A stretch of DNA of 32,000 nucleotides from Candidatus Methylomirabilis oxygeniifera (GCA_000091165.1 FP565575.1:2490001-2522000), one strand, 5' to 3'; shown: positions 1 to 27,923, counted from the first letter of the stretch. The notes: generated by a model from the letters alone, not told the origin. Made by a program: numbers and translations.

Positions 1-295
1 CGTATCCCTGTCCCTGCCGATCTACGACACGCAGTCGATAGGGAAAGAGGCCGTTCCGCGTCGGAACGACGACCTCGAAGAGACCGTCCGGGTGTACCAA
101 CTCCATGGGCCGGTCCTTGATCTCGCCATCGGCATGGACGACCATTGCCTCCCGGACATCCGGGAGGAAGGCGCGCACGACGACGCATGGCTCTGCGGCG
201 ATGGGTACCTCATGCGGGCCCAGTACGGCGAACGGATCGCCGTGCTCACCCCGGACAATCGCCTCGATCACCTCAGCAGCAAGACTGGAAAGCAT
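1..295 (-). CDS. glgB: 1,4-alpha-glucan branching enzyme, N-terminal fragment (gene continues beyond the left edge)
   Basis: Absent from the ORF track because it runs off the window. Hand translation of the minus strand from the ATG at 295 gives MLSSLAAEVIEAIVRGEHGDPFAVLGPHEVPIAAEPCVVVRAFLPDV... This matches the conserved GlgB N-terminus pattern (I.ALI.G.H.DPF.VLG.H ... VRA.LPDA). AGGAGA lies 8 nt upstream of the ATG. Confidence 0.75.
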   Translation of the reverse strand, partial: MLSSLAAEVIEAIVRGEHGDPFAVLGPHEVPIAAEPCVVVRAFLPDVREAMVVHADGEIKDRPMELVHPDGLFEVVVPTRNGLFPYRLRVVDRQGQGY

Positions 296-482
296 TTATG
301 TAATCTCCTGTATCTTGGGCAACGCTGCCCAAAGATAACACCATCCCTCCTTCATTTCAATCGCGGTTGCGTGGTGGCATGATCTAGAGGAATCCAAGGA
401 TGGCGGAAAGGCAGAAAGGAAAGCAATCGGCGCTCCTTGCGAGCGCACCTTCTGCTTTAGCCAAAAGAGTTCACGGGTGGCC

Positions 483-525
483 AAGAAAAAAGAAAAGGCG
501 ACTCGCGTAGGTGAAGCCGCCTTTT
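483..525 (-). terminator. Rho-independent terminator candidate downstream of the 546..872 gene
   Basis: On the minus strand, AAAAGGCG (525..518) pairs with CGCCTTTT (500..493) around a 17-nt loop. The stem is followed by CTTTTTTCTT. Confidence 0.55.
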
Positions 526-545
526 CCTGGCTGTTTCGCGTCGGC

Positions 546-872
546 TCAGCCGCCGGCCGGAAGCCTCGTGATGGACTCAGCGAAGGCCTTCCAGTCGCCA
601 GCCTCATGATAATTAACAGGTGAGAAATCACTAAGGAAACTGTGTGTCGCGACTTCCACCATGTCACCCGGCTTAAGATTAGCCAGCGCCATTGTAGCCC
701 GGTCGATGGCCGTGAAGGTCACCGGAAACCCCGAAACATTTATTGTCAGTTCCTGCCAGGAGGGGTTTACCGCGATCACCTCACCGGTGATCATATGTAG
801 CGCCGACGCCGTGCCGGCAAAGGACACCACTGCTAGAAAAGCGATAAAAGCCACCAACACTTTTCTCGACAT
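546..872 (-). CDS. small secreted hypothetical protein (108 aa)
   Basis: Lies within ORF 546..911. The internal ATG at 872 is preceded by GAAGGAGGTG. The product starts MSRKVLVAFIAFLAVVSFAGTASA, a typical Sec signal peptide. No family recognised. Confidence 0.6.
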   Translation of the reverse strand: MSRKVLVAFIAFLAVVSFAGTASALHMITGEVIAVNPSWQELTINVSGFPVTFTAIDRATMALANLKPGDMVEVATHSFLSDFSPVNYHEAGDWKAFAESITRLPAGG

Positions 873-960
873 GACCGATTCACCTCCTTCTGTATTTACC
901 GTAGGTCGCAAACCAGGTCACGTCAAGGGCTGTACAAAAAATGAGTCGGGTGGAGGGCAT

Positions 961-972
961 TGTACCGGTACA
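961..972. promoter_or_regulatory. perfect 12-bp palindrome TGTACCGGTACA in the divergent promoter region (possible operator)
   Basis: Read directly from the sequence. A further TGTACA lies at 931..936. The site is about 70 nt upstream of the ATG of the helicase 5' remnant. Confidence 0.3.
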
Positions 973-1040
973 TTGTGATGCCCAATGTATTGATGTTACG
1001 TCCTTCTTCCTGTATGTTCTTCCTGGGGAGTTAACAGCAA

Positions 1041-1402
1041 ATGGTACAGCCACTCACCATGACGGTTTCAGATACAGGGACGACCGATCTGGATGGCTTG
1101 AACGTGGCCCAGCAGGCGGCGGTCACGCACGGCGATGGCCCGTTGCTGATCATTGCGGGCGCCGGGACGGGGAAGACCACGGTGATCGCGCGCACCGGAT
1201 CGCCCACCCGATCAACAGCAGGCGAGTCCGGCCGGAGCAGGTGCTGGCGCTGACCTTTACCGAGAAGGCGGCGGCGGAGATGGAGCGGCGTGTCGACCTG
1301 CTGGTTCCGTACGGCTTCACCGATACCTGGATCTCCACCTTTCACGCCTTTGGAGACCGCGTGCTTCGGGAGCACGCCCTGGTGCTGGGGCTGAGTCCGG
1401 AC
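1041..1402 (+). pseudogene. truncated, frameshifted 5' fragment of the UvrD-type helicase-nuclease gene
   Basis: ORF 1041..1253 encodes ...GLNVAQQAAVTHGDGPLLIIAGAGTGKTTVIA, including Walker A. The homologous reading (RIAHPINSRRVRPEQVLALTFTEKAAAEMERRVDLLVPYGFTDTWISTFHAFGDRVLREHALVLGLSPD) then continues in the frame of ORF 941..1459. The shift comes from a 2-nt indel near 1190 relative to 6494..6500. Homology to 6347..9322 stops abruptly at 1402. Confidence 0.85.
1095..1402 (+). repeat. direct repeat, copy 1 (308 nt) of helicase 5' coding sequence
   Basis: Hand alignment with 6401..6706 shows 13 substitutions plus one 2-nt indel, including a perfectly identical stretch of more than 100 nt. The right boundary is sharp (1402 vs 6706). 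The left boundary fades into diverged N-terminal codons. Confidence 0.9.
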
Positions 1403-1437
1403 CGAGGCTGCGATGTTCGTCGGTTGCCCCGCCGGAG

Positions 1438-2043
1438 TCATCCCACAGCCTCCAGATAGGGGCGGATCAGTGTCACGCGGTCCACCGGAGCGAAGCGCCA
1501 GACGGCCTCCAGGCGTTTAGGGTACATCCTCCGGTAGTCGCGCAGCGCCTCGATGGCGACGTCGATGCCGATCTTGTTGCGGAACTTGAAACAGTCCGCG
1601 ACGGTCTTGGCCGCGCTGAACACCCGTACCGTCACGCCGGAGATGCGGTGCTCCTCCACCCCTTCCAGCAACGCGGGGCCTGACAGGTAGAACAGCCGCA
1701 GGGGAGGCTGCTCCAGTCGCGGCCTCCACGCTTTGCGGTCGATCGCCATCCAGATCTCGAACGGGTTCTGCGTGGTAAGCCCGTGAAAGCGCAGTGCCAA
1801 CAGTAGGCAGAGGACGCCCACAGGCACGCGGCGCGCGACCTCTACGAGATGCTGTCGCTCCGTTACGGGGGCACCCGGGAGCCGGTAGAGACCGCGCCCC
1901 ACCCGCTCGAGCAGTCCCCTATCCAGCAACCGGCGTAGTTGTATTCTCGAGACGCCAACGCGCTCAATGTCCCGGGAGCGCGCGATCCCAACTCGCTGCA
2001 TCAGCTCTTGAATCTGATCCGGTAGGATGATTCTTGTAGTCAC
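1438..2043 (-). CDS. abiEi: AbiEi-family (type IV TA antitoxin / wHTH regulator) protein, apparently without its AbiEii partner
   Basis: 201 aa with a GTG start. The N-terminus ELMQRVGIARSRDIERVGVSRIQLRRLLDRGLLERVGRGLYRLPG followed by VPVGVLCLLLALRFHGLTTQNP is the pattern I associate with AbiEi N- and C-terminal domains (COG5340). Confidence 0.7.
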   Translation of the reverse strand: MTTRIILPDQIQELMQRVGIARSRDIERVGVSRIQLRRLLDRGLLERVGRGLYRLPGAPVTERQHLVEVARRVPVGVLCLLLALRFHGLTTQNPFEIWMAIDRKAWRPRLEQPPLRLFYLSGPALLEGVEEHRISGVTVRVFSAAKTVADCFKFRNKIGIDVAIEALRDYRRMYPKRLEAVWRFAPVDRVTLIRPYLEAVG

Positions 2044-2495
2044 AATACCTCGGCCTCCGTTACTAGATGCCGAGTATATGTGACACGTCTGAAGTGGGCC
2101 GTCAAGGCCCCTTCTCCCTCATGACTACCACGCTCGCTGGCGTGCCTACGCGAGGCCAGTGAAGCCGGAATGATTCCGTGGAGGCGCTGCGTGAAGCTGC
2201 TGAGGAGTCAGGGCGTGACTAATCGTTGCGCTGCACTCCTGAAGACGAACGACTATGTGACCTGACGGTGAGGGGTTACTTCAGCGCGTCGCGCTTAGCC
2301 GCGAACTCGTAGTATCGGTGTCGCTGGTACTTGATAAGTACCGCACTCCCCGCCATTGACGAAAGCATTGCTCCCGAGGGAAGGCTGCCGAACGGATTGG
2401 GGCTTCAGCTGCAACGAATACGGCGGACCACAAACGCTAATGCGGAATCGCCCGCCGCCAGACCATCACGAATCGATCGACCGAGCTGTTCGTTA

Positions 2496-3881
2496 TCAGC
2501 TGCAAGCGCTTGTTGCGCAGCTCGTCGATCTAGCGCGCAACCTTGAGAGGTTTGAGCCATCCTTGTCGACGATCTTGCCAGCCGAGACCGATTTTGCATA
2601 GATATCAACTGCTGCCGCCAAGTCGTCGTTCCCGATGATACGCTTCTCCACCGCGCTTTGAAGCATTGCTGCAACCTTGTCTCCTAGCAGTCGCGATTGG
2701 ACGTTCGACACTCGCTCAATCAGGAAGAAGGACTGACCGAGGGAAGGTTCGGTAACAAGCTCATCCAAAAAGAGACGCATTGCCCGAGGAACACCGTAGA
2801 CTCCCCGCTCGAACCGCACAGATCCAAGGTATAGCTCCAGCTGACGGTCTTTCGTGATCACCCGATCGAGCCAAAGTGCCAACAGGATTTCTATCGCCTT
2901 CCGTCGTACGAGCTTCTGATGCTCTTGTATGAATAGCGTACGGGCTAGCTGTTGAGTGATCGTCGACCCTCCGGATCGCCGCCGCGCGCCGCCCAAGCCT
3001 AGGAGTGCCCTTGCGGAACCTCGTAGGCTGAGACCGCGGTGTGAAAAGAACGTCTGGTCTTCGATAAAGACGAGAACCTTCTTGAGGTTGGTAAGATCGA
3101 TCTTCAGCCTTTGGATCTCATAGCTCGCAAGCGTCGCTCTGTAGATCACTTGCTCAAAATTCCCAACGAGCTGGAGCCGGACGCACCGCGCGAGCGAACG
3201 CGCGAAGAGAAGGCTCAAACGCTCATGGGTGTCCAGCAGCGCCTTGCGATAGACGATCGCAAGGAAGATCGCCCAGCCTGCAGCGCCGAGGAATACTAAT
3301 GCTGTTGGAGGGGCGTAAAAGATCCAGTTCCGGGCGAGCAACTGCTTCGACAGTTCAGTCGATACGAAGAGAACCACTGCCGCGGAGAAGCCGGCGATCA
3401 TGAACAGCGGATACGCGACGTAGGTGTTCCATCCGGGGAAGAGGCGTACTGCAAACGGCTCATCCGCTCCCTCAATCCTCCAATTTGGCAGCACGAGCTG
3501 CAGTCGCCCGTAGCTGAGACCGAGCATTCTGCGAAGGACGATCACCTTCCGCGCAGAGAAGACGACTGCCTTCTGTCGGTCGGCGAAATACCGCAGCGTG
3601 ACGATGGAGAAACCAGCGGCGAGAGCGAGAAGGACCGCTAGAGTCAACTCGGGGGCGAGGATAGGCTCAAAGGCGACCGTCAACGGGCCAAGGGAGCCAA
3701 CTATGAGAGATCCAAGCCCAGCGGCGGCAACTATCGAGATGTTGGAGGCGTTGAGGAACACACGCTCCTCGGCTTCGAGGGTCTTCGCAGCCGCCCTGTA
3801 CTCCTCGATTGCGATATCCCGGTGGTCAAAGTGATACGTCGGGAAGTGCTGCTGCCAGCCTTGCTGTTCGTCGTCTATCAT
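2496..3881 (-). CDS. multi-pass membrane protein with C-terminal GT51 peptidoglycan glycosyltransferase (transglycosylase) domain
   Basis: ORF 2496..4028. I prefer the ATG at 3881 (MIDDEQQGW...) because the longer form overlaps the upstream gene, but no clear RBS is present, so the start is uncertain. There are four hydrophobic helices: ISIVAAAGLGSLIVGSLGPLTVAF, LTLAVLLALAAGFSIVTLRYF, YVAYPLFMIAGFSAAVVLFV and ALVFLGAAGWAIFLAIVY. GT51 motifs follow: FIEDQTFFSHRG (EDxxFxxHxG), GGSTITQQLAR, RRKAIE...LELYLG. Confidence 0.75.
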   Translation of the reverse strand: MIDDEQQGWQQHFPTYHFDHRDIAIEEYRAAAKTLEAEERVFLNASNISIVAAAGLGSLIVGSLGPLTVAFEPILAPELTLAVLLALAAGFSIVTLRYFADRQKAVVFSARKVIVLRRMLGLSYGRLQLVLPNWRIEGADEPFAVRLFPGWNTYVAYPLFMIAGFSAAVVLFVSTELSKQLLARNWIFYAPPTALVFLGAAGWAIFLAIVYRKALLDTHERLSLLFARSLARCVRLQLVGNFEQVIYRATLASYEIQRLKIDLTNLKKVLVFIEDQTFFSHRGLSLRGSARALLGLGGARRRSGGSTITQQLARTLFIQEHQKLVRRKAIEILLALWLDRVITKDRQLELYLGSVRFERGVYGVPRAMRLFLDELVTEPSLGQSFFLIERVSNVQSRLLGDKVAAMLQSAVEKRIIGNDDLAAAVDIYAKSVSAGKIVDKDGSNLSRLRARSTSCATSACS

Positions 3882-3927
3882 GTGCGATTTACTGACGGAG
3901 GTTTGTATGCGCGAGCTGCCCAACGCT

Positions 3928-3952
3928 GCGCGTAACCCGCGGGTTAACGCGC
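3928..3952 (-). other. GC-rich intercistronic hairpin between the AbiV-like and GT51 genes
   Basis: GCGCGTAACCCGCGGGTTAACGCGC is a near-perfect palindrome with one bulged base. No U-tract follows on the coding strand. Confidence 0.4.
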
Positions 3953-3955
3953 TTG

Positions 3956-4714
3956 TTAGGCATTCGGCGATTCCGGTCCGATGTTTCGCTGTTCCGAGTC
4001 CTCGAGCTCCTTCCAGATCGGGGCCCACTGTTCCGCCGTGATGAACCCCTTGTCGACCAGTTCCGCGTGCAGCCCGTTCATCGCATCTCGAAACGAGCCC
4101 CCTTTCTCCCGGGCGGCCGCAGCGTGTCTTGCCCAGACCTCCAACTCCTCGAGTGGGTAGTCGCGGAGGTAGTTGATGACGACCGCCGCCTCCCTGAGCA
4201 GAGTCTCGCTACGGTCGCGACAGTCTAGGTTACCGGGCAGGTGCACTGCCACCCCCTCGGGGATCGCGAAGCAATCGCTGTACAAGCCCAACTGCTTCGC
4301 AGCGTCAAGGTCTTCGGGAGATGGACCGTTCGCTTTGACTGCTACGCGCGTTTCCGCATCGAGATTCAGAAGAAGAACGCTTGCCCGCATCTCGATGGCG
4401 AAGTTGAAGAGCTCCGTCTTGGCGCTGTGGCGTCGATATGCACGCCACAGCGCGTCACACGACTGGCGCGGTGCGGCGATGCCGATGAGGATCGACATCA
4501 CGATGTGTGGTTTGCCTGCCTCTTCTAGCGCCAGGACGCATAGAGCAGTGGAGTGGTGAAAGCGTCCTTGCTCATGGAGCATCTTCGCGCTCGCCAGGAG
4601 GTCCAGCGCGTTGAGGCGAGCCGCCTGTATTGCCGCTGCTGCGTCGTGTGGCGTGAGGGGACCCGAGTAGGGTTGAAGACCAACCCTACTCAGTGATGAG
4701 GGCGGCTTGGCCAT
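3956..4714 (-). CDS. AbiV-like HEPN-domain abortive-infection family protein
   Basis: 252 aa, with ATG at 4714 preceded by GGAGA at a 6-nt spacer. LNALDLLASAKMLHEQGRFHHSTALCVLALEEAGK resembles the AbiV-family N-terminal helix pair (A.EE.GK). WRAYRRHSAK contains an R-x4-H HEPN motif. This is family assignment from memory, not a database search. Confidence 0.6.
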   Translation of the reverse strand: MAKPPSSLSRVGLQPYSGPLTPHDAAAAIQAARLNALDLLASAKMLHEQGRFHHSTALCVLALEEAGKPHIVMSILIGIAAPRQSCDALWRAYRRHSAKTELFNFAIEMRASVLLLNLDAETRVAVKANGPSPEDLDAAKQLGLYSDCFAIPEGVAVHLPGNLDCRDRSETLLREAAVVINYLRDYPLEELEVWARHAAAAREKGGSFRDAMNGLHAELVDKGFITAEQWAPIWKELEDSEQRNIGPESPNA

Positions 4715-4742
4715 GCCGTGTCTCCGAATGCCTAACTATTGA

Positions 4743-5480
4743 TTAGGCGGACTCCTCTCGTTTGCGCTCACGTGCCCACTCCTGCCAATACCGCGCGTTG
4801 GAAAGGAAGTCACTATCGATGAGCAATCGCCTCCGGACGTCAAACACCCGGAACGTGCGCTCGTAGTCATACGTAACTCCCCAGTAGCCCAGGTAGTCTG
4901 CCGTGGTAACGCCCCGAATCGTTTCATCGACGTCGAGCAGAACACGGAAGCGGCATAGTCGTTGTTCCGGGTCTTGAAAGACCGGTACCTGGATGGAGTA
5001 CGGGTACTCACCCCGCCCGTTGCGGAGGAGTGGGTAGCACTGGCCGAGCGTCTGGAAAATCTGGCCCAGCGACTCATAGATGGAGTCGCTGCAGATCTTG
5101 GTAATGACGACCTCCGCATCGGCAAACGTGAGGTGCAGTTCGCTGATATCGACGTTGCGCTCCGGATTCTGAGACCGCAGCTTCTTGTAGGCGGCCAGAA
5201 ACGGACGAAGGACAAACGACCGAGCCCCGGACTTGAGCAAATCAAATGCAACGCCGTCAGCGACCAGTTTCAGGACGTCATGAATAGAGATGTTGGATAG
5301 CGCGTGAACTGCAAACTCATAAAGACCACCTCCGAGGTCGCCGGGTCTGCTGCGGACCCGCGCCACGTAGTGGGCATCGAGCTCTGACTGGAATTCCCGA
5401 ATGCCGTCCAGCTCGAGAAGGCGGTCAGGACCCTCCTGGATTGCCCAGTACTCGACTTGGAGCGAAAGGGGGTACTCCAT
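4743..5480 (-). CDS. hypothetical protein (245 aa), first gene of the AbiV-like operon
   Basis: Lies within ORF 4743..5633. The ATG at 5480 (MEYPLSLQVEYW...) is preceded by GGAGTGACG. No recognisable motif, no TM segment and no signal peptide. Confidence 0.55.
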   Translation of the reverse strand: MEYPLSLQVEYWAIQEGPDRLLELDGIREFQSELDAHYVARVRSRPGDLGGGLYEFAVHALSNISIHDVLKLVADGVAFDLLKSGARSFVLRPFLAAYKKLRSQNPERNVDISELHLTFADAEVVITKICSDSIYESLGQIFQTLGQCYPLLRNGRGEYPYSIQVPVFQDPEQRLCRFRVLLDVDETIRGVTTADYLGYWGVTYDYERTFRVFDVRRRLLIDSDFLSNARYWQEWARERKREESA

Positions 5481-5666
5481 CGTCACTCCGATCCGCCTAA
5501 CTATAAGTGAGCCGCCCCTGAAACCGACAAAGGCTGGCGGCCTATTTCCTGAATCGACTCGACTCCCAAACGACGAATTGGCGTGTAATCTCCCACACTT
5601 AGCCAAACCGGTCAAGCGTATTCTGGCCGACAAATGTTGCCGGCTTCGGAAGCCTATCCCGGTCGG

Positions 5667-5939
5667 CTATCCGATTTTTGACGTCAGTTCTCCCTCAACA
5701 TACCGATGGATGATGCCGGAAATGAGGGTTTGATAGGGGATGCCTAATTCCATGGCTTTCTTTTGAATGCCCTTGTAGTCATGGTCGTAGAGGCGAATGG
5801 TAATCCGTCTGTCCTTGACCAAGGTCTTTCTGGCGGTCGCCTTTATAGCTTCAAGCTCCTTCTTGGACGGAGCGGATAGCTTCATCTGCCCTTTCTCGTA
5901 GGCATCGACAATGGTTTTTTCCTCTTTGCTGTATTTCAT
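5667..5939 (-). CDS. brnA: BrnA-family antitoxin (RHH/CopG-like C-terminus)
   Basis: 90 aa. RITIRLYDHDYKGIQKKAMELGIPYQTLISGIIHRYVEGEL matches the BrnA pattern (..IPYQTLI..). It lies 6 nt downstream of the BrnT-like gene, the toxin-first order typical of BrnTA. Confidence 0.7.
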   Translation of the reverse strand: MKYSKEEKTIVDAYEKGQMKLSAPSKKELEAIKATARKTLVKDRRITIRLYDHDYKGIQKKAMELGIPYQTLISGIIHRYVEGELTSKIG

Positions 5940-5945
5940 GTGTTG

Positions 5946-6224
5946 TTAACCCTCCTGCTCCTTTTTGTATGCTTGGGTTGCCTTTCGACTCGGAATAATG
6001 GTCTTCAAGAAGATGTCATCCTTTTCTACAACGTGAGGAACAAGATAAATGTAGTCTTCCACAACCACAAAGTATATTCGCTGTCCGGGATAGTTCTCTT
6101 GATCGGGGTGATCGGTAAGTTTCCAGACGTCACCACGAGCCAGATGAAAGAGTATCTTTTCGAAAGAGATCCCTCTTTCCTCCTTTAACCACTCGTTCTT
6201 CTCGGAGTCCCATTCATATTTCAT
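5946..6224 (-). CDS. brnT: BrnT-family (DUF497) toxin
   Basis: 92 aa. MKYEWDSEKNEWLKEERGISFEKI fits the BrnT N-terminal signature (F/YEWD..K...N..K.G.sFeE). GC content is low relative to the rest of the window. Confidence 0.7.
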   Translation of the reverse strand: MKYEWDSEKNEWLKEERGISFEKILFHLARGDVWKLTDHPDQENYPGQRIYFVVVEDYIYLVPHVVEKDDIFLKTIIPSRKATQAYKKEQEG

Positions 6225-6232
6225 GTTTTATA

Positions 6233-6253
6233 TGTACATCTTTTGTCTGTACA
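6233..6253. promoter_or_regulatory. TGTACA-N9-TGTACA paired palindromes directly upstream of brnT (candidate BrnA operator)
   Basis: TGTACAtcttttgtcTGTACA begins 9 nt upstream of the brnT ATG (6224, minus strand). TTGACT lies immediately upstream on the minus strand, and a perfect TATAAT (complement of 6302..6307) lies further upstream. Confidence 0.4.
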
Positions 6254-6346
6254 AGTCAACGTGATAGCATTGCCGTTTATACCGGAGGGAATCGTCATGC
6301 TATTATAGCGTGGCGTGGTTGAGCGACTACAAAGGATTGGCGAGGA

Positions 6347-9322
6347 ATGGTGGAAGAGCCTCAAGTGATCTCAGAAAGAAATCCTGCGATGGGTGTGGAA
6401 GGCTTGAACGCGGCCCAGCAGGCGGCGGTCACGCACGGCGATGGCCCGTTGCTCATCATTGCGGGCGCCGGGACGGGGAAGACCACCGTAATCGCTCACC
6501 GAATCGCCCACCTGATCAACAGCAGGCGGGCCCGGCCGGAACAGGTGCTGGCGCTGACCTTTACCGAGAAGGCGGCGGCGGAGATGGAGCGGCGTGTCGA
6601 CCTGCTGGTTCCGTACGGCTTCACCGATACCTGGATCTCCACCTTCCACGCCTTTGGAGACCGTGTGCTTCGGGAGCACGCCCTAGTGCTGGGGCTGAGT
6701 CCGGACTTCCGCCTGCTGACGGTGCCGGAGCAGGTCATCTTCTTTCAGGAGCATCTGTTCGAGCTTCCATTAGACTATTTCCGGCCGCTCGGTAGTCCGC
6801 TGCGGCATGTGCAGGCGCTGCTTCAACTGTTCAGTCGAGCCAAGGACGAGGATGTCGGCCCTGAGCAGTACGCGAGTTACGCGGAGGAGCTGGTCGGTCG
6901 AGCGACGGCCGCTCCGGACGACAAGACGCTGGCGGAGCAGGCGACGCGGGAGATGGAGATCGCCAGGGTCTACCGGCAGTACCAGGAGCTGATGGCGCGA
7001 GAAGGGAAGCTGGACTTCGGTGATCTGATGGTGCGGACACTGGACTTACTTCGGGAACACCCGCTGGTGCTCCAACGGTTGCAGGAGCGGTTCCGGTATA
7101 TCCTGGTCGATGAGTTCCAGGATACCAACTACGCCCAGTTTCAGATTGTGAAGCTGCTCACGGCCTCCCATCGGAATGTGACGGTGGTGGGGGATGACGA
7201 CCAGTCGATCTTCAAATTTCGAGGGGCCTCGATCAGCAACATCCTCAGCTTCCGCCGTGAGTTTCCTGACGCCGAGACGATCGTCCTTGCAGAGAACTAT
7301 CGCTCGACCTCAAGCGTCCTCGATGCCGCGTACCGTCTGATCCAGCACAACAACCCTGATCGACTGGAGTATCAGGAAGGTGTCGACAAGCGCCTGAAGC
7401 CTTGCAATGGTGACGGCCCGGCCGTTGAGAGCGTAGTCTTCCAGACCTATCAGGAAGAGGCCGACTGGGTGGTCGAAAAGATCGAGGAACTGATCGAGGC
7501 CAAGGCGTGCGCGCTTGGCGACATCGCCATTCTGGTCCGGCGAAACAGCGATGCCGACCCATTGCTCCGAGCACTGAACATGAAGGGAATCCCCTGGAGC
7601 TTCAGCGGGGCGAAGGGTCTGTACGACAGGGATGAGATACGTCTGGTGATCTCGTTCCTCCGCCTACTGGCTGATCCATACGACTCCCTGAGTCTCTTTC
7701 ATCTGGCTGGCTCCGATATCTACGGGTTGCCGGCTGCCGATTTGACCCTCTGCAACGCCCATGCGCGCCGGAAGCATCGCAGTCTCTATGAGGTGTTGCT
7801 CGATCTGACGAGGCGACCAGGCGCTGTGCCCGAGCTGTCCGGGGTCTCGACTGAAGGGATCGCTGCTGCCACGGCCCTCCTGAGTGATTTGCATCGCTAT
7901 CTGGACAAAGCGGCTCGGGAGGTGACGGGACGTATCCTGTACGAGTTCTTGATGGAACAGCCGGGCTACGGCAAGCGACTGCTGCATTCGAACTCCTCGC
8001 GCGATCATCAACGGATCAGCAACCTCGCCGCATTCTTCGGCCTGGTTCAGCGGTTCGGCGAGGTGGCGCCCCAGGACCGCGTGGCCGGCTTTGTTCCGTA
8101 TCTGACGATGCTGATCGAGGCGGGCGAGAACCCGCCCGTTGCGGAGGGTGAGGCGGCAGAGGAAGGGGTGGCCGTGCTCACGCTGCACAAGGCCAAGGGC
8201 CTCGAGTTCGAGGCGGTGTTTCTCGTAGGCCTGGTCGAGAAACGGTTTCCCTCGATCGATCGGCGGGAGGCAATCCCGCTTCCCGATGAGCTGATCAAGG
8301 AGACGCTACCGTCCGGCGACTTTCATCAGCAGGAGGAGCGACGTCTGTTCTACGTTGGCATGACCCGGGCCAAGCGGCACCTGTTCCTCACGCGGGCGAA
8401 AGATTACGGGACAAAGCGGGAGTGGAAGCGTAGCCGGTTCCTGGCGGAGGCGCTGGCCCTGCCGAGAGAGGAGGAAGAGCAGCCCTGGCGAGGGACGGCA
8501 GAGGCGGTCATAGGTCGATACGCGCCGCCGCCCCAGGTCGCCATCGATCTTGCGATCCGGGCTGACACCCCGCTCAGCCTCTCGCACTATCAGATCGATG
8601 ACTATCTGACCTGCCCGTTGAAATACAAATATGTCCATATCCTGCGGGTGCCTGTGCTCAGAGAGCATACGATCATCTACGGCGCCGCGCTGCATCGGGC
8701 CGTTCAGGCGTATAATACCCAACGGCTTACCGGGCAAACAATGTCGCTTGACGATCTGATCAAATCGTTTGAAGCCCACTGGGTCAATGAAGGGTTCATC
8801 TCCCGGGAACACGAGGAGCGGCGAATGCAGGAAGGTCGGGATGCCCTGACCCGCTTCCATGCCGGTGCCGCGAAGGGACCGCTGCCGACGTCGGTCGAGA
8901 AACGATTCCGGTTCCAGCTCGGTGACGATCTCGTCACCGGTATTATGGATCGGGTAGATGAGCGTGAGGGTGAGACCGTAATTATCGACTATAAGTCGTC
9001 GTCGGTCCGGGACCAAAAAGCGGCAGACAAAGAGGCCCGGGAGAGCCAGCAACTTGCGCTGTATGCGCTGGCCTACCGGGAATCGATCGGCCGGTTGCCG
9101 GATCGGGTGGAGTTGCATTTCCTGACCCCCGGCGGCGTCATCGTCGGGCAGGCGGTGAAAAAGGAAAAAGATCTCGATCAGGCGGTCGAACGGGTTCGGG
9201 CGGCTGCAACCGGGATTCGGGCAGGTCTCTTTCAGGCGACCCCCAGTCAGTGGGTCTGCAGCTTCTGCGCCTTCAGGACCATCTGTCCTGCCACCGTGTG
9301 GATCGGGGAGCACCAGGGATGA
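6347..9322 (+). CDS. UvrD/PcrA-family SF1 helicase fused to a C-terminal PD-(D/E)XK (Cas4/AddB-like, Cys-cluster) nuclease
   Basis: 991 aa. Helicase motifs: AGAGTGKTT, LTFTEKAAAEM, VDEFQDTN, VVGDDDQSIFKFRGA, NYRS, TLHKAKGLEFEAVFLVG, ERRLFYVGMTRAK. Nuclease motifs: YLTCPLKY, IMDRVDE...VIIDYKSS, QLALYALAY, and CSFCAFRTIC at the C-terminus. The start is uncertain (ATG 6347 has GAGGA too close; 6389 is an alternative). Confidence 0.9.
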   Translation: MVEEPQVISERNPAMGVEGLNAAQQAAVTHGDGPLLIIAGAGTGKTTVIAHRIAHLINSRRARPEQVLALTFTEKAAAEMERRVDLLVPYGFTDTWISTFHAFGDRVLREHALVLGLSPDFRLLTVPEQVIFFQEHLFELPLDYFRPLGSPLRHVQALLQLFSRAKDEDVGPEQYASYAEELVGRATAAPDDKTLAEQATREMEIARVYRQYQELMAREGKLDFGDLMVRTLDLLREHPLVLQRLQERFRYILVDEFQDTNYAQFQIVKLLTASHRNVTVVGDDDQSIFKFRGASISNILSFRREFPDAETIVLAENYRSTSSVLDAAYRLIQHNNPDRLEYQEGVDKRLKPCNGDGPAVESVVFQTYQEEADWVVEKIEELIEAKACALGDIAILVRRNSDADPLLRALNMKGIPWSFSGAKGLYDRDEIRLVISFLRLLADPYDSLSLFHLAGSDIYGLPAADLTLCNAHARRKHRSLYEVLLDLTRRPGAVPELSGVSTEGIAAATALLSDLHRYLDKAAREVTGRILYEFLMEQPGYGKRLLHSNSSRDHQRISNLAAFFGLVQRFGEVAPQDRVAGFVPYLTMLIEAGENPPVAEGEAAEEGVAVLTLHKAKGLEFEAVFLVGLVEKRFPSIDRREAIPLPDELIKETLPSGDFHQQEERRLFYVGMTRAKRHLFLTRAKDYGTKREWKRSRFLAEALALPREEEEQPWRGTAEAVIGRYAPPPQVAIDLAIRADTPLSLSHYQIDDYLTCPLKYKYVHILRVPVLREHTIIYGAALHRAVQAYNTQRLTGQTMSLDDLIKSFEAHWVNEGFISREHEERRMQEGRDALTRFHAGAAKGPLPTSVEKRFRFQLGDDLVTGIMDRVDEREGETVIIDYKSSSVRDQKAADKEARESQQLALYALAYRESIGRLPDRVELHFLTPGGVIVGQAVKKEKDLDQAVERVRAAATGIRAGLFQATPSQWVCSFCAFRTICPATVWIGEHQG
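6401..6706 (+). repeat. direct repeat, copy 2 (306 nt), part of the intact helicase gene
   Basis: See copy 1 (1095..1402). Confidence 0.9.
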
Positions 9323-9915
9323 AGATCGGTATCGACCTCGATGATGTCCTGGCCGATTCGCTCCCGCATTTTACGCAGGCGTTTAATAGGCATTTTGACC
9401 TTGATATTGAACTGCCTGATGCCGCGTGGCGGATCGCCGACCGGTTTCCCCAGATTTCTAGGCGAGAGGCCGACGACTTCTTCACAGAACTGATCGAGAG
9501 CGGTTTTTTCTCATCCAGATCGCTTATCCCCCACGCTAAAGAAGCGGTGGAAACATTGGTTGACGGCGGCCATGATCTGTATATCATCACCGGTCGGACC
9601 CCGCGAGATGAGCGAATTACGATGGACTGGCTGGCGCGCGTCGGCGTACGGTCTTACTTTGAGGCGGTTGTGCACAGGACGTGCGACCCGGTGGAGCGCC
9701 ACAAGGCGGATGTCGCATCAGGATTAGCGCTCAGTCTCTTCATTGAGGATGAGTTGACGGTAGCCCTGACGGTCGCGGAGACCGCTATCCCGGTCCTGTT
9801 GTTCGATCGCCCATGGAATCAGAGTCCGCTTCCCGGCAACGTGCGCCGGGTCGAGTCATGGCATGAGGCGCTGACGCAAATTGCCGAACTGAACGGCGGC
9901 AATGGACACCAATAG
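9319..9915 (+). CDS. HAD-superfamily 5'(3')-deoxyribonucleotidase-like hydrolase
   Basis: The ATG at 9319 overlaps the helicase TGA (ATGA). MKIGIDLDDVLAD carries the HAD motif I DxDx(V/T), followed by IITGR and FIEDE motifs. Confidence 0.65.
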   Translation: MKIGIDLDDVLADSLPHFTQAFNRHFDLDIELPDAAWRIADRFPQISRREADDFFTELIESGFFSSRSLIPHAKEAVETLVDGGHDLYIITGRTPRDERITMDWLARVGVRSYFEAVVHRTCDPVERHKADVASGLALSLFIEDELTVALTVAETAIPVLLFDRPWNQSPLPGNVRRVESWHEALTQIAELNGGNGHQ

Positions 9916-10005
9916 TCTCGCCCTCCGCTTGCCTCTCATGCTCCAGTATGCTAGCGTACAACTGTTCTGCGGAAAATCTCTCCCTTCACGCGAATAGAGG
10001 ATGAC

Positions 10006-24593: not shown

Positions 24594-24611
24594 CAAATGA
24601 GAGGGAATGCA

Positions 24612-27600
24612 ATGAATACGGAATTCCATAAAATGGATCAAGAGGCGCTGCCGCGGCACACTAATAGGCTGATCCACGAGACCAGCCCCTACCTCCTGCA
24701 GCATGCCCATAACCCGGTGGACTGGTACCCCTGGGGAGAGGAGGCGCTCCGCCGGGCCAGGGAGGAGAACCGTCCGATCCTGCTCAGCATCGGCTACTCC
24801 GCCTGTCACTGGTGCCATGTGATGGCGCATGAGTCGTTCGAGAGCGAGCAGATCGCCGAGCTGATGAACCGGTATTTCGTGTGCATCAAGGTCGATAGGG
24901 AGGAGCGACCCGACCTCGATGCGATCTACATGGCGGCCACGCTGGCCCTGAATCATGGGCAGGGCGGGTGGCCGATGACCGTGTTTCTGACCCCTGACCT
25001 GCAGCCGTTCTTCGCGGGGACCTACTTCCCACCCAGGGATGGGTTGGGCCGCCCGGGATTCCCGACGATCCTAAATCGGGTTGCGCAGGTCTGGCGCGAG
25101 CAGCCCGACGCCCTCCGCACCCAATCGGACAAAATTACTGAAGGCTTGCGCGAGAGTTCTCGCCCCTCCTTGCCTATGCCGGTGGGACGGGCTGAGATCG
25201 CTGCCGCCGTTGCCCACTTCGCGGCAACCTTCGATCCGACCTTTGGCGGGTTCGGCGCCGCCCCCAAGTTCCCCGCAGCAACAGCATTGTCGCTCCTGCT
25301 GCGCCACCACCAACACACCGGGGATGCCCACGCCCTGCAGATGGTGCGGACGACGCTCGACGCCATGGCACGGGGCGGGATCTACGACCAGATCGGCGGC
25401 GGCTTTGCCAGGTACTCGACCGACGAGCGCTGGTTGATCCCCCACTTCGAGAAGATGCTCTACGACAATGCGCTGCTGGCCAGAACCTATCTGGAGGCCT
25501 TCCAGGTGGCCGGCGACCCGTCCTATCGGCAAATCGCGACCGAACTCCTCGACTATATTCTACGCGAGATGACCGCGCTGGAGGGAGGGTTTTACTCGGC
25601 CACCGATGCCGACTCGGAAGGAGTCGAGGGGAAGTTTTATGTCTGGACGCCGGCCGAGATCGAGGCGATTCTGGGGCAGGAGGAGGCACGCCGGTTCTGC
25701 GCCTATTACGACATCACGCCCACCGGCAACTGGGAGGGCAGGTCGATCCCCAATATCCGCCGCACGGCCGCGCAGGTGGCAGCAAAGCTTGGGGTCAGTG
25801 TCGAGGAGCTTGCCGCCTCTATCGATCGGACGCAGCCCAAGGTCTATGAGGCTCGTCGAAAGCGGGTGCCACCCGGACTGGATGACAAGATTCTCACCGC
25901 CTGGAACGGTCTGATGGTCAGCGCGATGGCCGAGGGATACCGTGTCCTCGGCGAACGGCGTCACCTTGACGCCGCCGTTCGCGCGGCCGACTTCTTGCTC
26001 TCTACGCTCCTCCGACCTGACGGTCGGCTGCTCCGGACCTACCGGAGCGGCGTCGCGCATCTGAACGCCTACCTTGAGGATTATGCCTGCCTCTGCGAAG
26101 GGCTGATCGATCTGTACGAGGCGGGCGGCGAAACCCGCTATCTCCGTGAGGCCGTCCGACTAGCCGAGCGTATGCCGGGCGATTTCGCCGATGAAGAGAG
26201 CGGCGCCTTCCACACCACCTCGCGCGATCACGAAACGCTGATCCTGCGCTATCGAGAGGGAACGGATGGCGCCACCCCCAGCGGTAACGCCGTCGCGGCC
26301 TCGGCGCTGACTCGCCTCTCATTTCACCTGAACCGGGAGGAGTGGCGAAGGGCGGCCGAGCAGGCGATCAGCGCGTATGGGCAGCAGATCGCCCGCTATC
26401 CGCACGCCTTCGCCAAGAGCCTCGCCGTCGTGGACCTCCTCCTGGAGGGGCCGGTGGAGCTCTGCCTGATCGGCAACCCGGCAGAGGCGGGGTGTGAGGC
26501 GCTACGCCGGGAGGTTGGGCGTCACTTCATCCCGAACCGGATCATTGCGCATCACGATCCGACCAAAGGCAATCCGCCCGAGCTCCCTCTGCTGAGGGGG
26601 AAGGGGTTAGTCGATGGTCGCGCGGCGCTGTATCTCTGCCGGAACTTTACCTGTCAGGCTCCCATCACTGATCCCGCGCAGGTAGCCGAACTCCTTGGCG
26701 CTGCCGCGCGGCGTGGAGCAGGCGGCAGACGGTCAGCCGTCGGGAGCTTCCTGCAGGGCAGCGCAACGGAGGCCGGCACCGCAGCCTACGCACAACGCTT
26801 CACCCCATCAGGCTACGGGCCGCTCGGAGCAACCGGCCTGAGCGCCAGCAAGCTGGGCTTCGGGGGCTACCGGATCGACGATGAGACGCCCGAGCACACC
26901 GAAGCCCTCGAGCAGGCACTGCGCCATGGCTGCAACCTGATCGACACCTCCACCAACTACACAGATGGCGGCAGCGAGCGGTGCGTCGGCGCCGTCCTGG
27001 GTAAGCTCGCGCGTACCGGAACGCTTAGGCGCGAGGAGGTCATTGTCGTCTCGAAGATCGGCTACGTCCAGGGACAGAACCTGGAGCTGGCCCAGAAGCG
27101 AGAGGCGGAGGACAGGCCGTTTCCAGAGATGGTCAAATATATGGAGGGCTGCTGGCACTGCATACATCCGGAGTTTCTGCGCGATCAGCTTGAACGGTCG
27201 CTCACCCGGCTGCAGATCGAGACCCTCGATGTCTGCCTGCTGCACAATCCTGAGTACTTCCTCTCAGACGCCAGGGCGCGCAGGCGCGGCGACCTGGAGT
27301 CTGCTCGTAACGAGTTCTACCGGCGGCTGCAAGAGGCCTTTCGCTTCTTCGAAAGTCAAGTGGCAGCCGGTACGATCCGATGGTATGGCGTCTCTTCAAA
27401 CACCGTCGTGGCGCCTGCGGCTGATCCGGAGGCGACGTCGCTGACCCGAATGCTGGCCGCCGCGCGAGAGGCTGGTGGGCCGGCCCACCACTTCCGGATC
27501 CTTCAGCTCCCGATGAATCTGTTCGAGGCGGGCGCGCTTCTCACGCAGAACACCGGACCGGACAATCGGCAGACAGCGCTGGAGGCCGCATCCGGCGCGG

Positions 27601-27923
27601 CAATCGGTGCCCTGGTCAACCGGCCGCTCAATGCCATCGTCGGCGACAGGATGGTCCGGCTGGCGGCGAGTTCCAGCCGGCGCGTTCATGACGCGATCTC
27701 GGCGGCTATCGATCCGCTACTCTCTGAGGCGCGACGAGGCGAGAGCCTGTCCCGCAAGGCGCTCTGGGCCCTGGCCAGCACCCCGGGCGTCAGTTGCGTC
27801 CTGAACGGCATGCGCACCCGCGACTATGTTCATGACTCGCTCGGTATCCTGCCCTGGCCTCCGCTCGCTGACGTCATCCCGATCTATCAGGCTGCGCAGG
27901 ACCTCACGCTTCACGAGGTCTAG
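24612..27923 (+). CDS. fusion protein: thioredoxin-like DUF255/YyaL (six-hairpin glycosidase-like) module + C-terminal aldo/keto reductase
   Basis: The ATG at 24612 is preceded by GAGGGA (5-nt spacer). N-terminal part: [29 protein letters not shown] and [17 protein letters not shown] (DUF255 hallmark). C-terminal part from about residue 720: [29 protein letters not shown] (the AKR D/Y/K/H tetrad context). Single uninterrupted ORF. Confidence 0.85.

Follow-up and report, generated by a model that had tools for sequence, protein, structure and literature searches.

The window, a 32,000-nucleotide (nt) stretch of Candidatus Methylomirabilis oxygeniifera (Ca. M. oxyfera; GCA_000091165.1 FP565575.1:2490001-2522000), carries an intact helicase-nuclease gene preceded by an island of defence and toxin-antitoxin (TA) genes and, on the far side of this island, by a second, partial copy of the helicase 5' end. 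The accessory DNA is therefore bracketed by two direct repeats of ~306 bp. We conclude that the locus is probably a recombination scar in a strain-variable hotspot, where two alleles of the region upstream of the helicase have been joined, and not a mobile element. Further helicase 5' copies and further cases of this cargo were sought among ~170 related loci retrieved by genome and metagenome scans (tblastn, blastn). Coordinates of individual features are presented in Table 1.

At the left edge of the island, the hexamer CCGGAC is common to helicase nt 357-362 (codons ..S-P-D) and to codons V14-R15 of the toxin gene AbiEii, which lies on the opposite strand. The AbiEii remnant starts at an ATG at window position 1441 and, after codon 15, its reading frame continues into the reverse complement of the helicase. 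The intact AbiEii N-terminus is MNPAPERKNPAASVRARLLN in L096, where the neighbouring AbiEi is 86% identical to that of the window, and MSERNLAASVRARLLN on a Methylomagnum plasmid (L186). The AbiE operons of both show the same 4-nt overlap between the AbiEii ATG and the AbiEi stop (ATGA) as the window. Because helicase nt 362 is fused antisense to AbiEii codon 15, we judged this edge to be an illegitimate joint rather than an attachment (att) site. Two convergent genes are cut short here, the helicase beyond nt 362 and AbiEii beyond its 15th codon. The ancestral AbiEii codons were inferred from the conserved AASVR motif, and the microhomology may accordingly have been up to 6 nt long. The adjacent AbiEi is full length (PADLOC AbiEi, E=5e-76 across the full model; homologues of 199-202 aa), and removal of the toxin with the antitoxin spared is a viable outcome.

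There is no equivalent junction on the right, because the right side of the island is the native helicase-upstream sequence of L009, L012 and L122. Window positions 5492-5667 and 6246-6399 shared 89-95% identity with the DNA between glgB and the helicase in L009 and L012. In L009, the counterpart of the first piece sits 138 nt from the GlgB start, and the entire spacer consists of these two pieces alone, without BrnTA or other cargo. The N-terminus of the intact helicase (6347-6400, immediately before the right repeat) belongs to the same allele, 'type B' (MVEEPQVIS...), which is found in L009, L012 and L122. The left copy carries a different N-terminus, 'type A' (MAQPPTMT...), in common with L005 and L011. 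In full, the N-terminus of the left copy is MVQPLTMTVSDTGTTDLDGLN, similar to those of P0008, P0011 and L011, and that of the right copy is MVEEPQVISERNPAMGVEGLN. The DNA upstream of the left copy followed the same pattern: window 11-370 matched L005, L007 and L011 beside GlgB, 490-941 matched the region of a 109-aa open reading frame (ORF) in L002 (79%), and 1001-1032 and 1027-1402 matched L005 and L011 on the two sides of their VapBC cassette. The left copy is thus collinear with the type-A allele, RBS region included. The window therefore contains the whole of a type-A allele, running from glgB as far as helicase nt 362, and after it a type-B allele without the part nearest to glgB. The VapBC cassette (~740 nt) itself lies ~15-25 nt upstream of the helicase ATG in L005 (9213-10000) and L011 (9150-9946), and its flanks are contiguous in the left copy of the window (1001-1040), giving a clean cassette indel at the region of the ribosome-binding site, or RBS.

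The first 18 codons of the helicase gene were hypervariable, with at least five N-terminal alleles among helicases of ≥90% identity, and these codons and the promoter region co-varied with the upstream cargo among strains. The right copy was ~95-100% similar to L009 across the upstream region and N-terminus but only ~86% similar across the gene body, and the breakpoint was therefore placed at the start of the conserved helicase region. In comparison to the rest of the gene, alleles in common with type-B strains were enriched in 6401-7400 (Fisher p=1.6e-5).

The wider locus was highly variable in size and content among NC10 relatives. The distance from the glgB start to the helicase ATG was 418 nt in L009, 1181 in L011, 3302 in L005, 4007 in L007 and 6051 in the window. 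Cargo upstream of the helicase included VapBC (PIN) in L005 and L011, HicA plus AAA_14/DUF4143 in L007, PemK/MazE in L002, ParE in L107 and a HicB-like protein in L012. Synteny of the helicase with NT5C, RodZ and a cation-efflux gene was conserved in all NC10 relatives. The order glgB ... helicase-NT5C-RodZ was found in the window, L005, L007, L009 and L011, and a different left flank in L002, L010 and L107. No transposase or integrase was detected in the NC10 hotspot loci. With conserved flanks, differing cargo rich in defence and TA genes and no mobile-element genes, the locus is a core-gene-flanked defence/TA hotspot. A second 5' copy of the helicase occurred in none of the related loci except L081, a distant low-GC metagenome-assembled genome (MAG; CAZBNI010000082.1, 2364-3230). 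There, a 109-nt direct repeat (83%) surrounds an IS200-like Y1 transposase ORF (2545-3120); the repeat spans the promoter of the orthologous helicase together with its first ~29 codons, and the upstream copy of the repeat ends in the Walker A codons. L081 is a second, independent insertion at the 5' end of this helicase with a duplicated 5' end.

The first-pass annotation, made by a model from the sequence alone, had described the repeat copies as differing by 13 substitutions and one 2-nt indel, with >100 nt perfectly identical. This was exact: site-by-site comparison of window 1095-1402 with 6401-6706 gave 13 substitutions and a 2-nt GC insertion at 1187-1188, with a longest identical run of 104 nt (1238-1341) and a further run of 41 nt (1107-1147). 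A repeat search returned 214 nt at 96% (1189-1402 against 6493-6706) and 109 nt at 92% (1081-1189 against 6387-6495), offset by the indel, whilst MAFFT and BLAST gave 313 aligned nt with 14 mismatches and 1 gap. This similarity is well above the chance level, and the copies diverge abruptly past 1402/6706. The same annotation was correct in giving the left copy its own ATG at 1041, a diverged N-terminus, a frameshift near 1190 and a sharp end at 1402, and in taking the right copy as the start of an intact 991-aa gene. The latter has UvrD and PDDEXK_1 domains, is described as of the UvrD/PcrA plus PD-(D/E)XK type and exactly matches M. oxyfera protein CBE69969.1 (UniRef100_D5MLR2). A 70-aa ORF of the left copy (1041-1253) still gives a Pfam UvrD-helicase match. 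Since the left copy combines three substitutions unique among the compared relatives with the frameshifting insertion, we read it as decaying, which supports the earlier proposal that it is a displaced 5' allele. The right copy has a few rare alleles of its own. The two publicly called ORFs of 172 aa and 136 aa are pseudogene and fusion artefacts and not real genes, and the Ca. M. oxyfera reference annotation is affected to this extent. Elsewhere, a type-B helicase fragment, P0265 (SRR5574337_105000), has a 49-aa internal deletion, with ...HLINSRRAR joined to AALVLGLSPD..., almost wholly within the repeated region; either an artefact of read assembly or a further rearrangement of this segment may account for it.

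We infer the order of events, the resident allele and the route of DNA uptake from the present product. Cassette alleles upstream of the NC10 helicase are interchangeable, each bringing the helicase promoter and first 18 codons, and the helicase sequence from codon 19 onwards would act as the homologous arm for exchange. Type A would have consisted of glgB, the small ORF, promoter A and N-terminus A, and type B of ...AbiEii-AbiEi, a transglycosylase-domain protein, AbiV, a protein of no assigned family, BrnA-BrnT, promoter B and N-terminus B. These two alleles would have become linked in tandem in the lineage of M. oxyfera. One join would have been homologous, within the helicase 5' region, and the other illegitimate, linking helicase nt 357-362 to AbiEii codons 14-15 through ≤6 nt of microhomology. 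This may have occurred through homology-facilitated illegitimate recombination (HFIR) of linear DNA, or through single-crossover integration of a fragment circularised at the microhomology, which would give the same product. The outcome would be one intact helicase, a destroyed AbiEii with its antitoxin spared and a type-A 5' end left as a pseudogene, in which the frameshift arose later. In the window, the right side is seamless, and similarity to L009 breaks where the conserved helicase region begins; the left joint shares GTCCGG, and the length of this microhomology hinges on the ancestral AbiEii codons. The locus is a new, well-resolved example of known processes, and no new mechanism or class of element.

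Several observations weigh against a junction between alleles of two strains. The two copies are most similar to one another (94.4% in one half and 96.7% in the other, versus ≤94.4% to other strains), which would also fit an intragenomic duplication. Polarisation of the 13 differences against 15 relatives and maps of native-like versus type-B-like alleles inside the repeat yielded mixed signals and no clean crossover, and pointed to neither a resident copy nor a position of the homologous crossover. L096 and L186 use GTG CGG at the AbiEii junction codons, and a 6-nt microhomology assumes that the lost AbiEii used GTC CGG. Finally, no donor allele with an intact AbiEii-AbiEi-...-helicase order was found among the related loci to match the proposed pre-event state. 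The identity of the left flank, compared with that of the helicase, to L007, L005 and L011 hints at different histories and is not decisive either way.

An intragenomic duplication would have produced two full helicases, the upstream one of which was then cut by a microhomology deletion into AbiEii, with the upstream cassettes exchanged later. We consider this unlikely. It accounts for the copies being mutual closest relatives in the conserved part and for the rare bases they share at 1294, 1306 and 1315, and the junction is typical of a deletion joint between convergent genes. However, it takes more steps (duplication, deletion and replacement of promoter and N-terminus), no relative has two full copies, and for 6 of the 13 differences either allele occurs among other strains, a pattern to be expected if the copies came from two strains. 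The shared rare bases lie inside the 104-nt run, which was longer than expected (simulation P=0.04), and together these suggest a gene-conversion patch. Such a patch, with the 41-nt run, would also suit a programmed two-state switch, in which the silent left allele and the repeats allow reversible loss and gain of the island with a change of N-terminus. A 1083-nt Logan contig from ERR13927251 (L095) bears on this directly, joining the upstream region and N-terminus of the right copy (window 6331-6412) to the body of the left copy (1148-1402, with its frameshift) and then running into AbiEi. A crossover in the 41-nt run would give precisely this sequence at the junction (R5'-L3') of a circle or tandem, and a k=31 assembly graph chimera would explain it equally well. 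A switch nevertheless appears highly improbable. The left-copy frameshift would make any crossover in 1189-1402, which is about 70% of the repeat, lethal to the helicase; a collection of 15 billion proteins, matched by exact sequence, contained none of the predicted excised hybrids; and no other lineage retains a silent copy. Because of this frameshift, the intact gene would be restored solely by crossovers upstream of 1187, for which the 41-nt run is the main opportunity. The suggestion in the first-pass annotation that the repeats allow precise excision by homologous recombination thus holds in principle, but the helicase would be inactivated by the majority of crossovers.

The same annotation had read the locus as an element inserted into the 5' part of the gene, with the repeats as its boundaries and a replacement 5' end and promoter brought along. 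Put as a rival explanation, this becomes a site-specific integrative island at the helicase 5' end, with the ~306-bp repeats as attL and attR and the integrase located elsewhere or lost. Replacement of the promoter and N-terminus of the functional gene stood up to analysis, the direct repeats do bracket accessory cargo, and L081 offers a distant parallel, in which an IS200-like transposase gene is flanked by two copies of a helicase 5' end. A discrete element with the repeats as its ends did not stand up. Its left boundary, an apparent illegitimate joint, cuts AbiEii at codon 15 with microhomology and would leave the element without a defined end; its right side is native intergenic sequence, present in strains without the island; and its cargo is a patchwork of cassettes that occur separately elsewhere. 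Neither an integrase in our scans nor a second case of this cargo beside a helicase 5' fragment among the related loci was found, the latter a check that the annotation itself had proposed. The integrative-island reading is largely refuted by this junction anatomy, and we regard it as very unlikely. A related proposal is that the conserved motif-I DNA at the helicase 5' end is a general, integrase-free docking site for modules of promoter, N-terminal leader and cargo, which could recombine into any genome with this widespread helicase, the silent 5' allele and its repeats then forming a reversible switch for shedding or regaining the island. If true, the process would also have left its mark in the 109-nt duplication of L081 and the L095 junction, although we consider this speculative and improbable. 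Insertion of an insertion sequence (IS) or transposon was rejected, there being no transposase, no boundary inverted repeats above chance and a duplication that is 306-362 nt long and diverged.

The arrangement could also have been created during metagenome assembly, by joining two co-existing strain alleles into one contig. The organism is known solely from enrichment cultures and MAGs, short-read contigs break within the repeat, L095 is a left/right chimera and the contigs of the two closest relatives begin inside the repeat (P0002/L004 and P0003, 97-98% identity; the upstream arrangement lies outside these contigs). However, a strain chimera could not make the novel 1402/1403 joint, which Logan contigs from three read sets (SRR023516, SRR2467140 and ERR13927251) cross at 99.8-100% identity. 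Likewise, window 1-10000 was 100% identical in a 975,900-bp ENA contig (Methylomirabilis_oxyfera_contig_6), AbiV and the helicase are both present on one contig of 2,752,854 bp, and the GC insertion recurs in independent contigs L092 and L095. Breaks of short-read contigs inside identical stretches, such as L093, which ends at 1312 and 6441, are as expected of a true repeat. An assembly artefact, which the first-pass annotation had raised as a way in which its reading might fail, is thus scarcely credible, both the junction and the frameshift being found in independent contigs.

Table 1 Features of the locus in window coordinates (strand given as + or -; a dot denotes no strand).
Feature	Position	Strand	Details
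'Type A' glgB-helicase intergenic allele	296..1040	.	GlgB-proximal 296-370; small ORF 546-911 (-); upstream region and RBS ~1001-1040
Publicly called 172-aa 'UvrD-helicase' ORF	941-1459	+	post-frameshift reading of pseudogene
Publicly called 136-aa ORF after AbiEi	1031-1441	-	AbiEii remnant running on into antisense helicase
Displaced helicase 5' pseudogene fragment (putative)	1041..1402	+	type-A N-terminus and codons 19-120; own ATG 1041
Frameshifting 2-nt (GC) insertion in left copy	1187..1188	+	missing from right copy and 15/15 relatives
Junction 31-mer	1393-1423		GAGTCCGGACCGAGGCTGCGATGTTCGTCGG
Putative illegitimate junction with microhomology	1397..1402	.	CCGGAC (plus), GTCCGG (minus)
AbiEii toxin remnant, first 15 codons	1397..1441	-	MTPAGQPTNIAASVR; 4-nt overlap of ATG with AbiEi stop
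Orphan AbiEi antitoxin/regulator, 201 aa, full length	1438..2043	-	Pfam AbiEi_4 E=3e-14
Membrane protein with GT51 transglycosylase domain, no transpeptidase	2496..4028	-	Pfam Transgly E=6e-29, residues 314-442
AbiV-family HEPN abortive-infection protein	3956..4714	-	Pfam HEPN_AbiV E=2e-17
245-aa protein, no assigned family	4743..5480	-	no Pfam, NCBIfam or PADLOC match
'Type B' conserved intergenic piece	5492..5667	.	89% to L009 1485-1647 and L012 1046-1221
BrnA-like (5667-5939) and BrnT-like (5946-6224) TA cassette	5667..6224	-	low GC, 44-49%
Type-B helicase upstream/promoter region	6246..6346	+	93-95% to L009 and L012; last 60 nt identical to L009
Intact helicase-nuclease, 991 aa	6347..9322	+	Pfam UvrD-helicase, UvrD_C, PDDEXK_1

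All cargo genes between the repeats are on the minus strand. In agreement with the first-pass annotation, no integrase, recombinase or transposase was detected in Pfam, NCBIfam and PADLOC scans of the island ORFs and small intergenic ORFs, nor was any recombinase-like match found for the only unannotated protein. The island contains no tRNA, Rfam family or IS, and its boundaries show no inverted repeats beyond chance-level 20-nt matches at 80%. When the cargo was compared with mobile DNA, AbiEi alone matched plasmids, and there was no match to phages. Promoter and terminator scans of the locus were uninformative.

The GT51 protein, publicly annotated from position 3881, gave only partial PBP1 matches in NCBIfam. 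It lies between AbiEi and AbiV, has a long N-terminal half with multiple transmembrane segments and has no PADLOC match. AbiV was well supported (NCBIfam AbiV_defense, 92.5 bits; cutoff 27). The idea that AbiV forms part of a conserved module was rejected, as its linkage to the GT51 and 245-aa proteins was inconsistent and a 67% AbiV homologue stands alone. For the 245-aa protein, a library of 1.8 billion proteins yielded 212 representatives, and its AlphaFold (AF2) model was of high confidence (predicted local distance difference test, pLDDT, 93.3; predicted template modelling score, pTM, 0.89). A Foldseek search of this model against the PDB returned no recombinase-like match (best hit E=0.03, template modelling score 0.23, MIF/tautomerase-like). 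The protein seems to represent an uncharacterised family found in a defence setting.

The assignment of the BrnA-BrnT cassette is based on matches below the curated Pfam cutoffs (BrnT_toxin E=5e-6; CopG_antitoxin E=0.008) and on NCBIfam BrnA (E=0.002). In L122, a cassette 89% identical stands next to the helicase, on its upstream side. The pair is absent from L009 (1347-1764), and L012 (1208-1420, minus strand) retains only a BrnT remnant, QRIYFVTVEDYI, indicating that gain or loss of BrnTA took place separately from that of the remaining island. TA genes also occur further afield: in L006, ~6-7 kb left of the position equivalent to window position 1 and beyond GH57 and MscS genes, a HigB-like toxin and an HTH_3 antitoxin were found (2705-3004 and 2329-2712), so the wider neighbourhood is also TA-rich. 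Unrelated to the island, an 1108-aa ORF at window 24597-27923 (plus strand) encodes an unusual fusion of an N-terminal DUF255/thioredoxin-like region, glycoside-hydrolase-like repeats and a C-terminal aldo/keto reductase.

A literature search returned nothing on this locus. Its closest parallels are core-gene-flanked defence hotspots, as described for defence islands in Escherichia coli (PMC10121019) and for the core defence hotspots (cDHS) of Pseudomonas aeruginosa, which lack scars of mobile genetic elements and for which movement through flanking homology has been proposed (PMC10250203). Core-gene-flanked hotspots of defence and TA genes are common, but how cargo enters them without mobile-element genes is mostly inferred, and is named as an open question in the latter study. 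In the present locus, the by-product of one such exchange can still be read: one side is homologous and the other has a microhomology, a toxin was destroyed and its antitoxin survived, and the 5' end of a gene was displaced. The locus further demonstrates that an exchanged unit may take in the promoter and first codons of a flanking core gene.

Like these hotspots, the locus has conserved flanks, strain-specific defence/TA cargo, a large size range and no integrase. It differs in that the variable unit reaches into the core gene (promoter and first 18 codons), in its visible scar (a duplicated 5' end and a truncated toxin gene), and in its host, an uncultured member of NC10 in which the glgB left flank is not present in all relatives. 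With gene-targeting integrative elements, it shares a partial gene duplicate flanking accessory DNA and a functional copy restored by incoming sequence. In contrast to such elements, it has no integrase or defined ends, its left end is a random break in AbiEii, and its repeat, 306 nt at 95%, is unlike a short identical core. Compared with AbiE type IV TA systems, AbiEi is full length and 86% identical to the AbiEi of intact AbiEi-AbiEii operons, whereas AbiEii is cut to 15 codons, and the pair is therefore non-functional as a TA or abortive-infection system. HFIR (de Vries & Wackernagel 2002; Prudhomme et al. 2002; Meier & Wackernagel 2003, as summarised in PMC6382021) combines a one-sided homologous anchor with 3-10 bp of microhomology, and the locus would likewise combine one homologous anchor with one illegitimate joint at a short GC-rich microhomology (≤6 nt). 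HFIR is defined by experiments in naturally transformable species, whereas here it would be deduced from a natural product only. Moreover, the recipient join in our locus would lie inside the anchor gene, giving a 362-nt duplication and no deletion.

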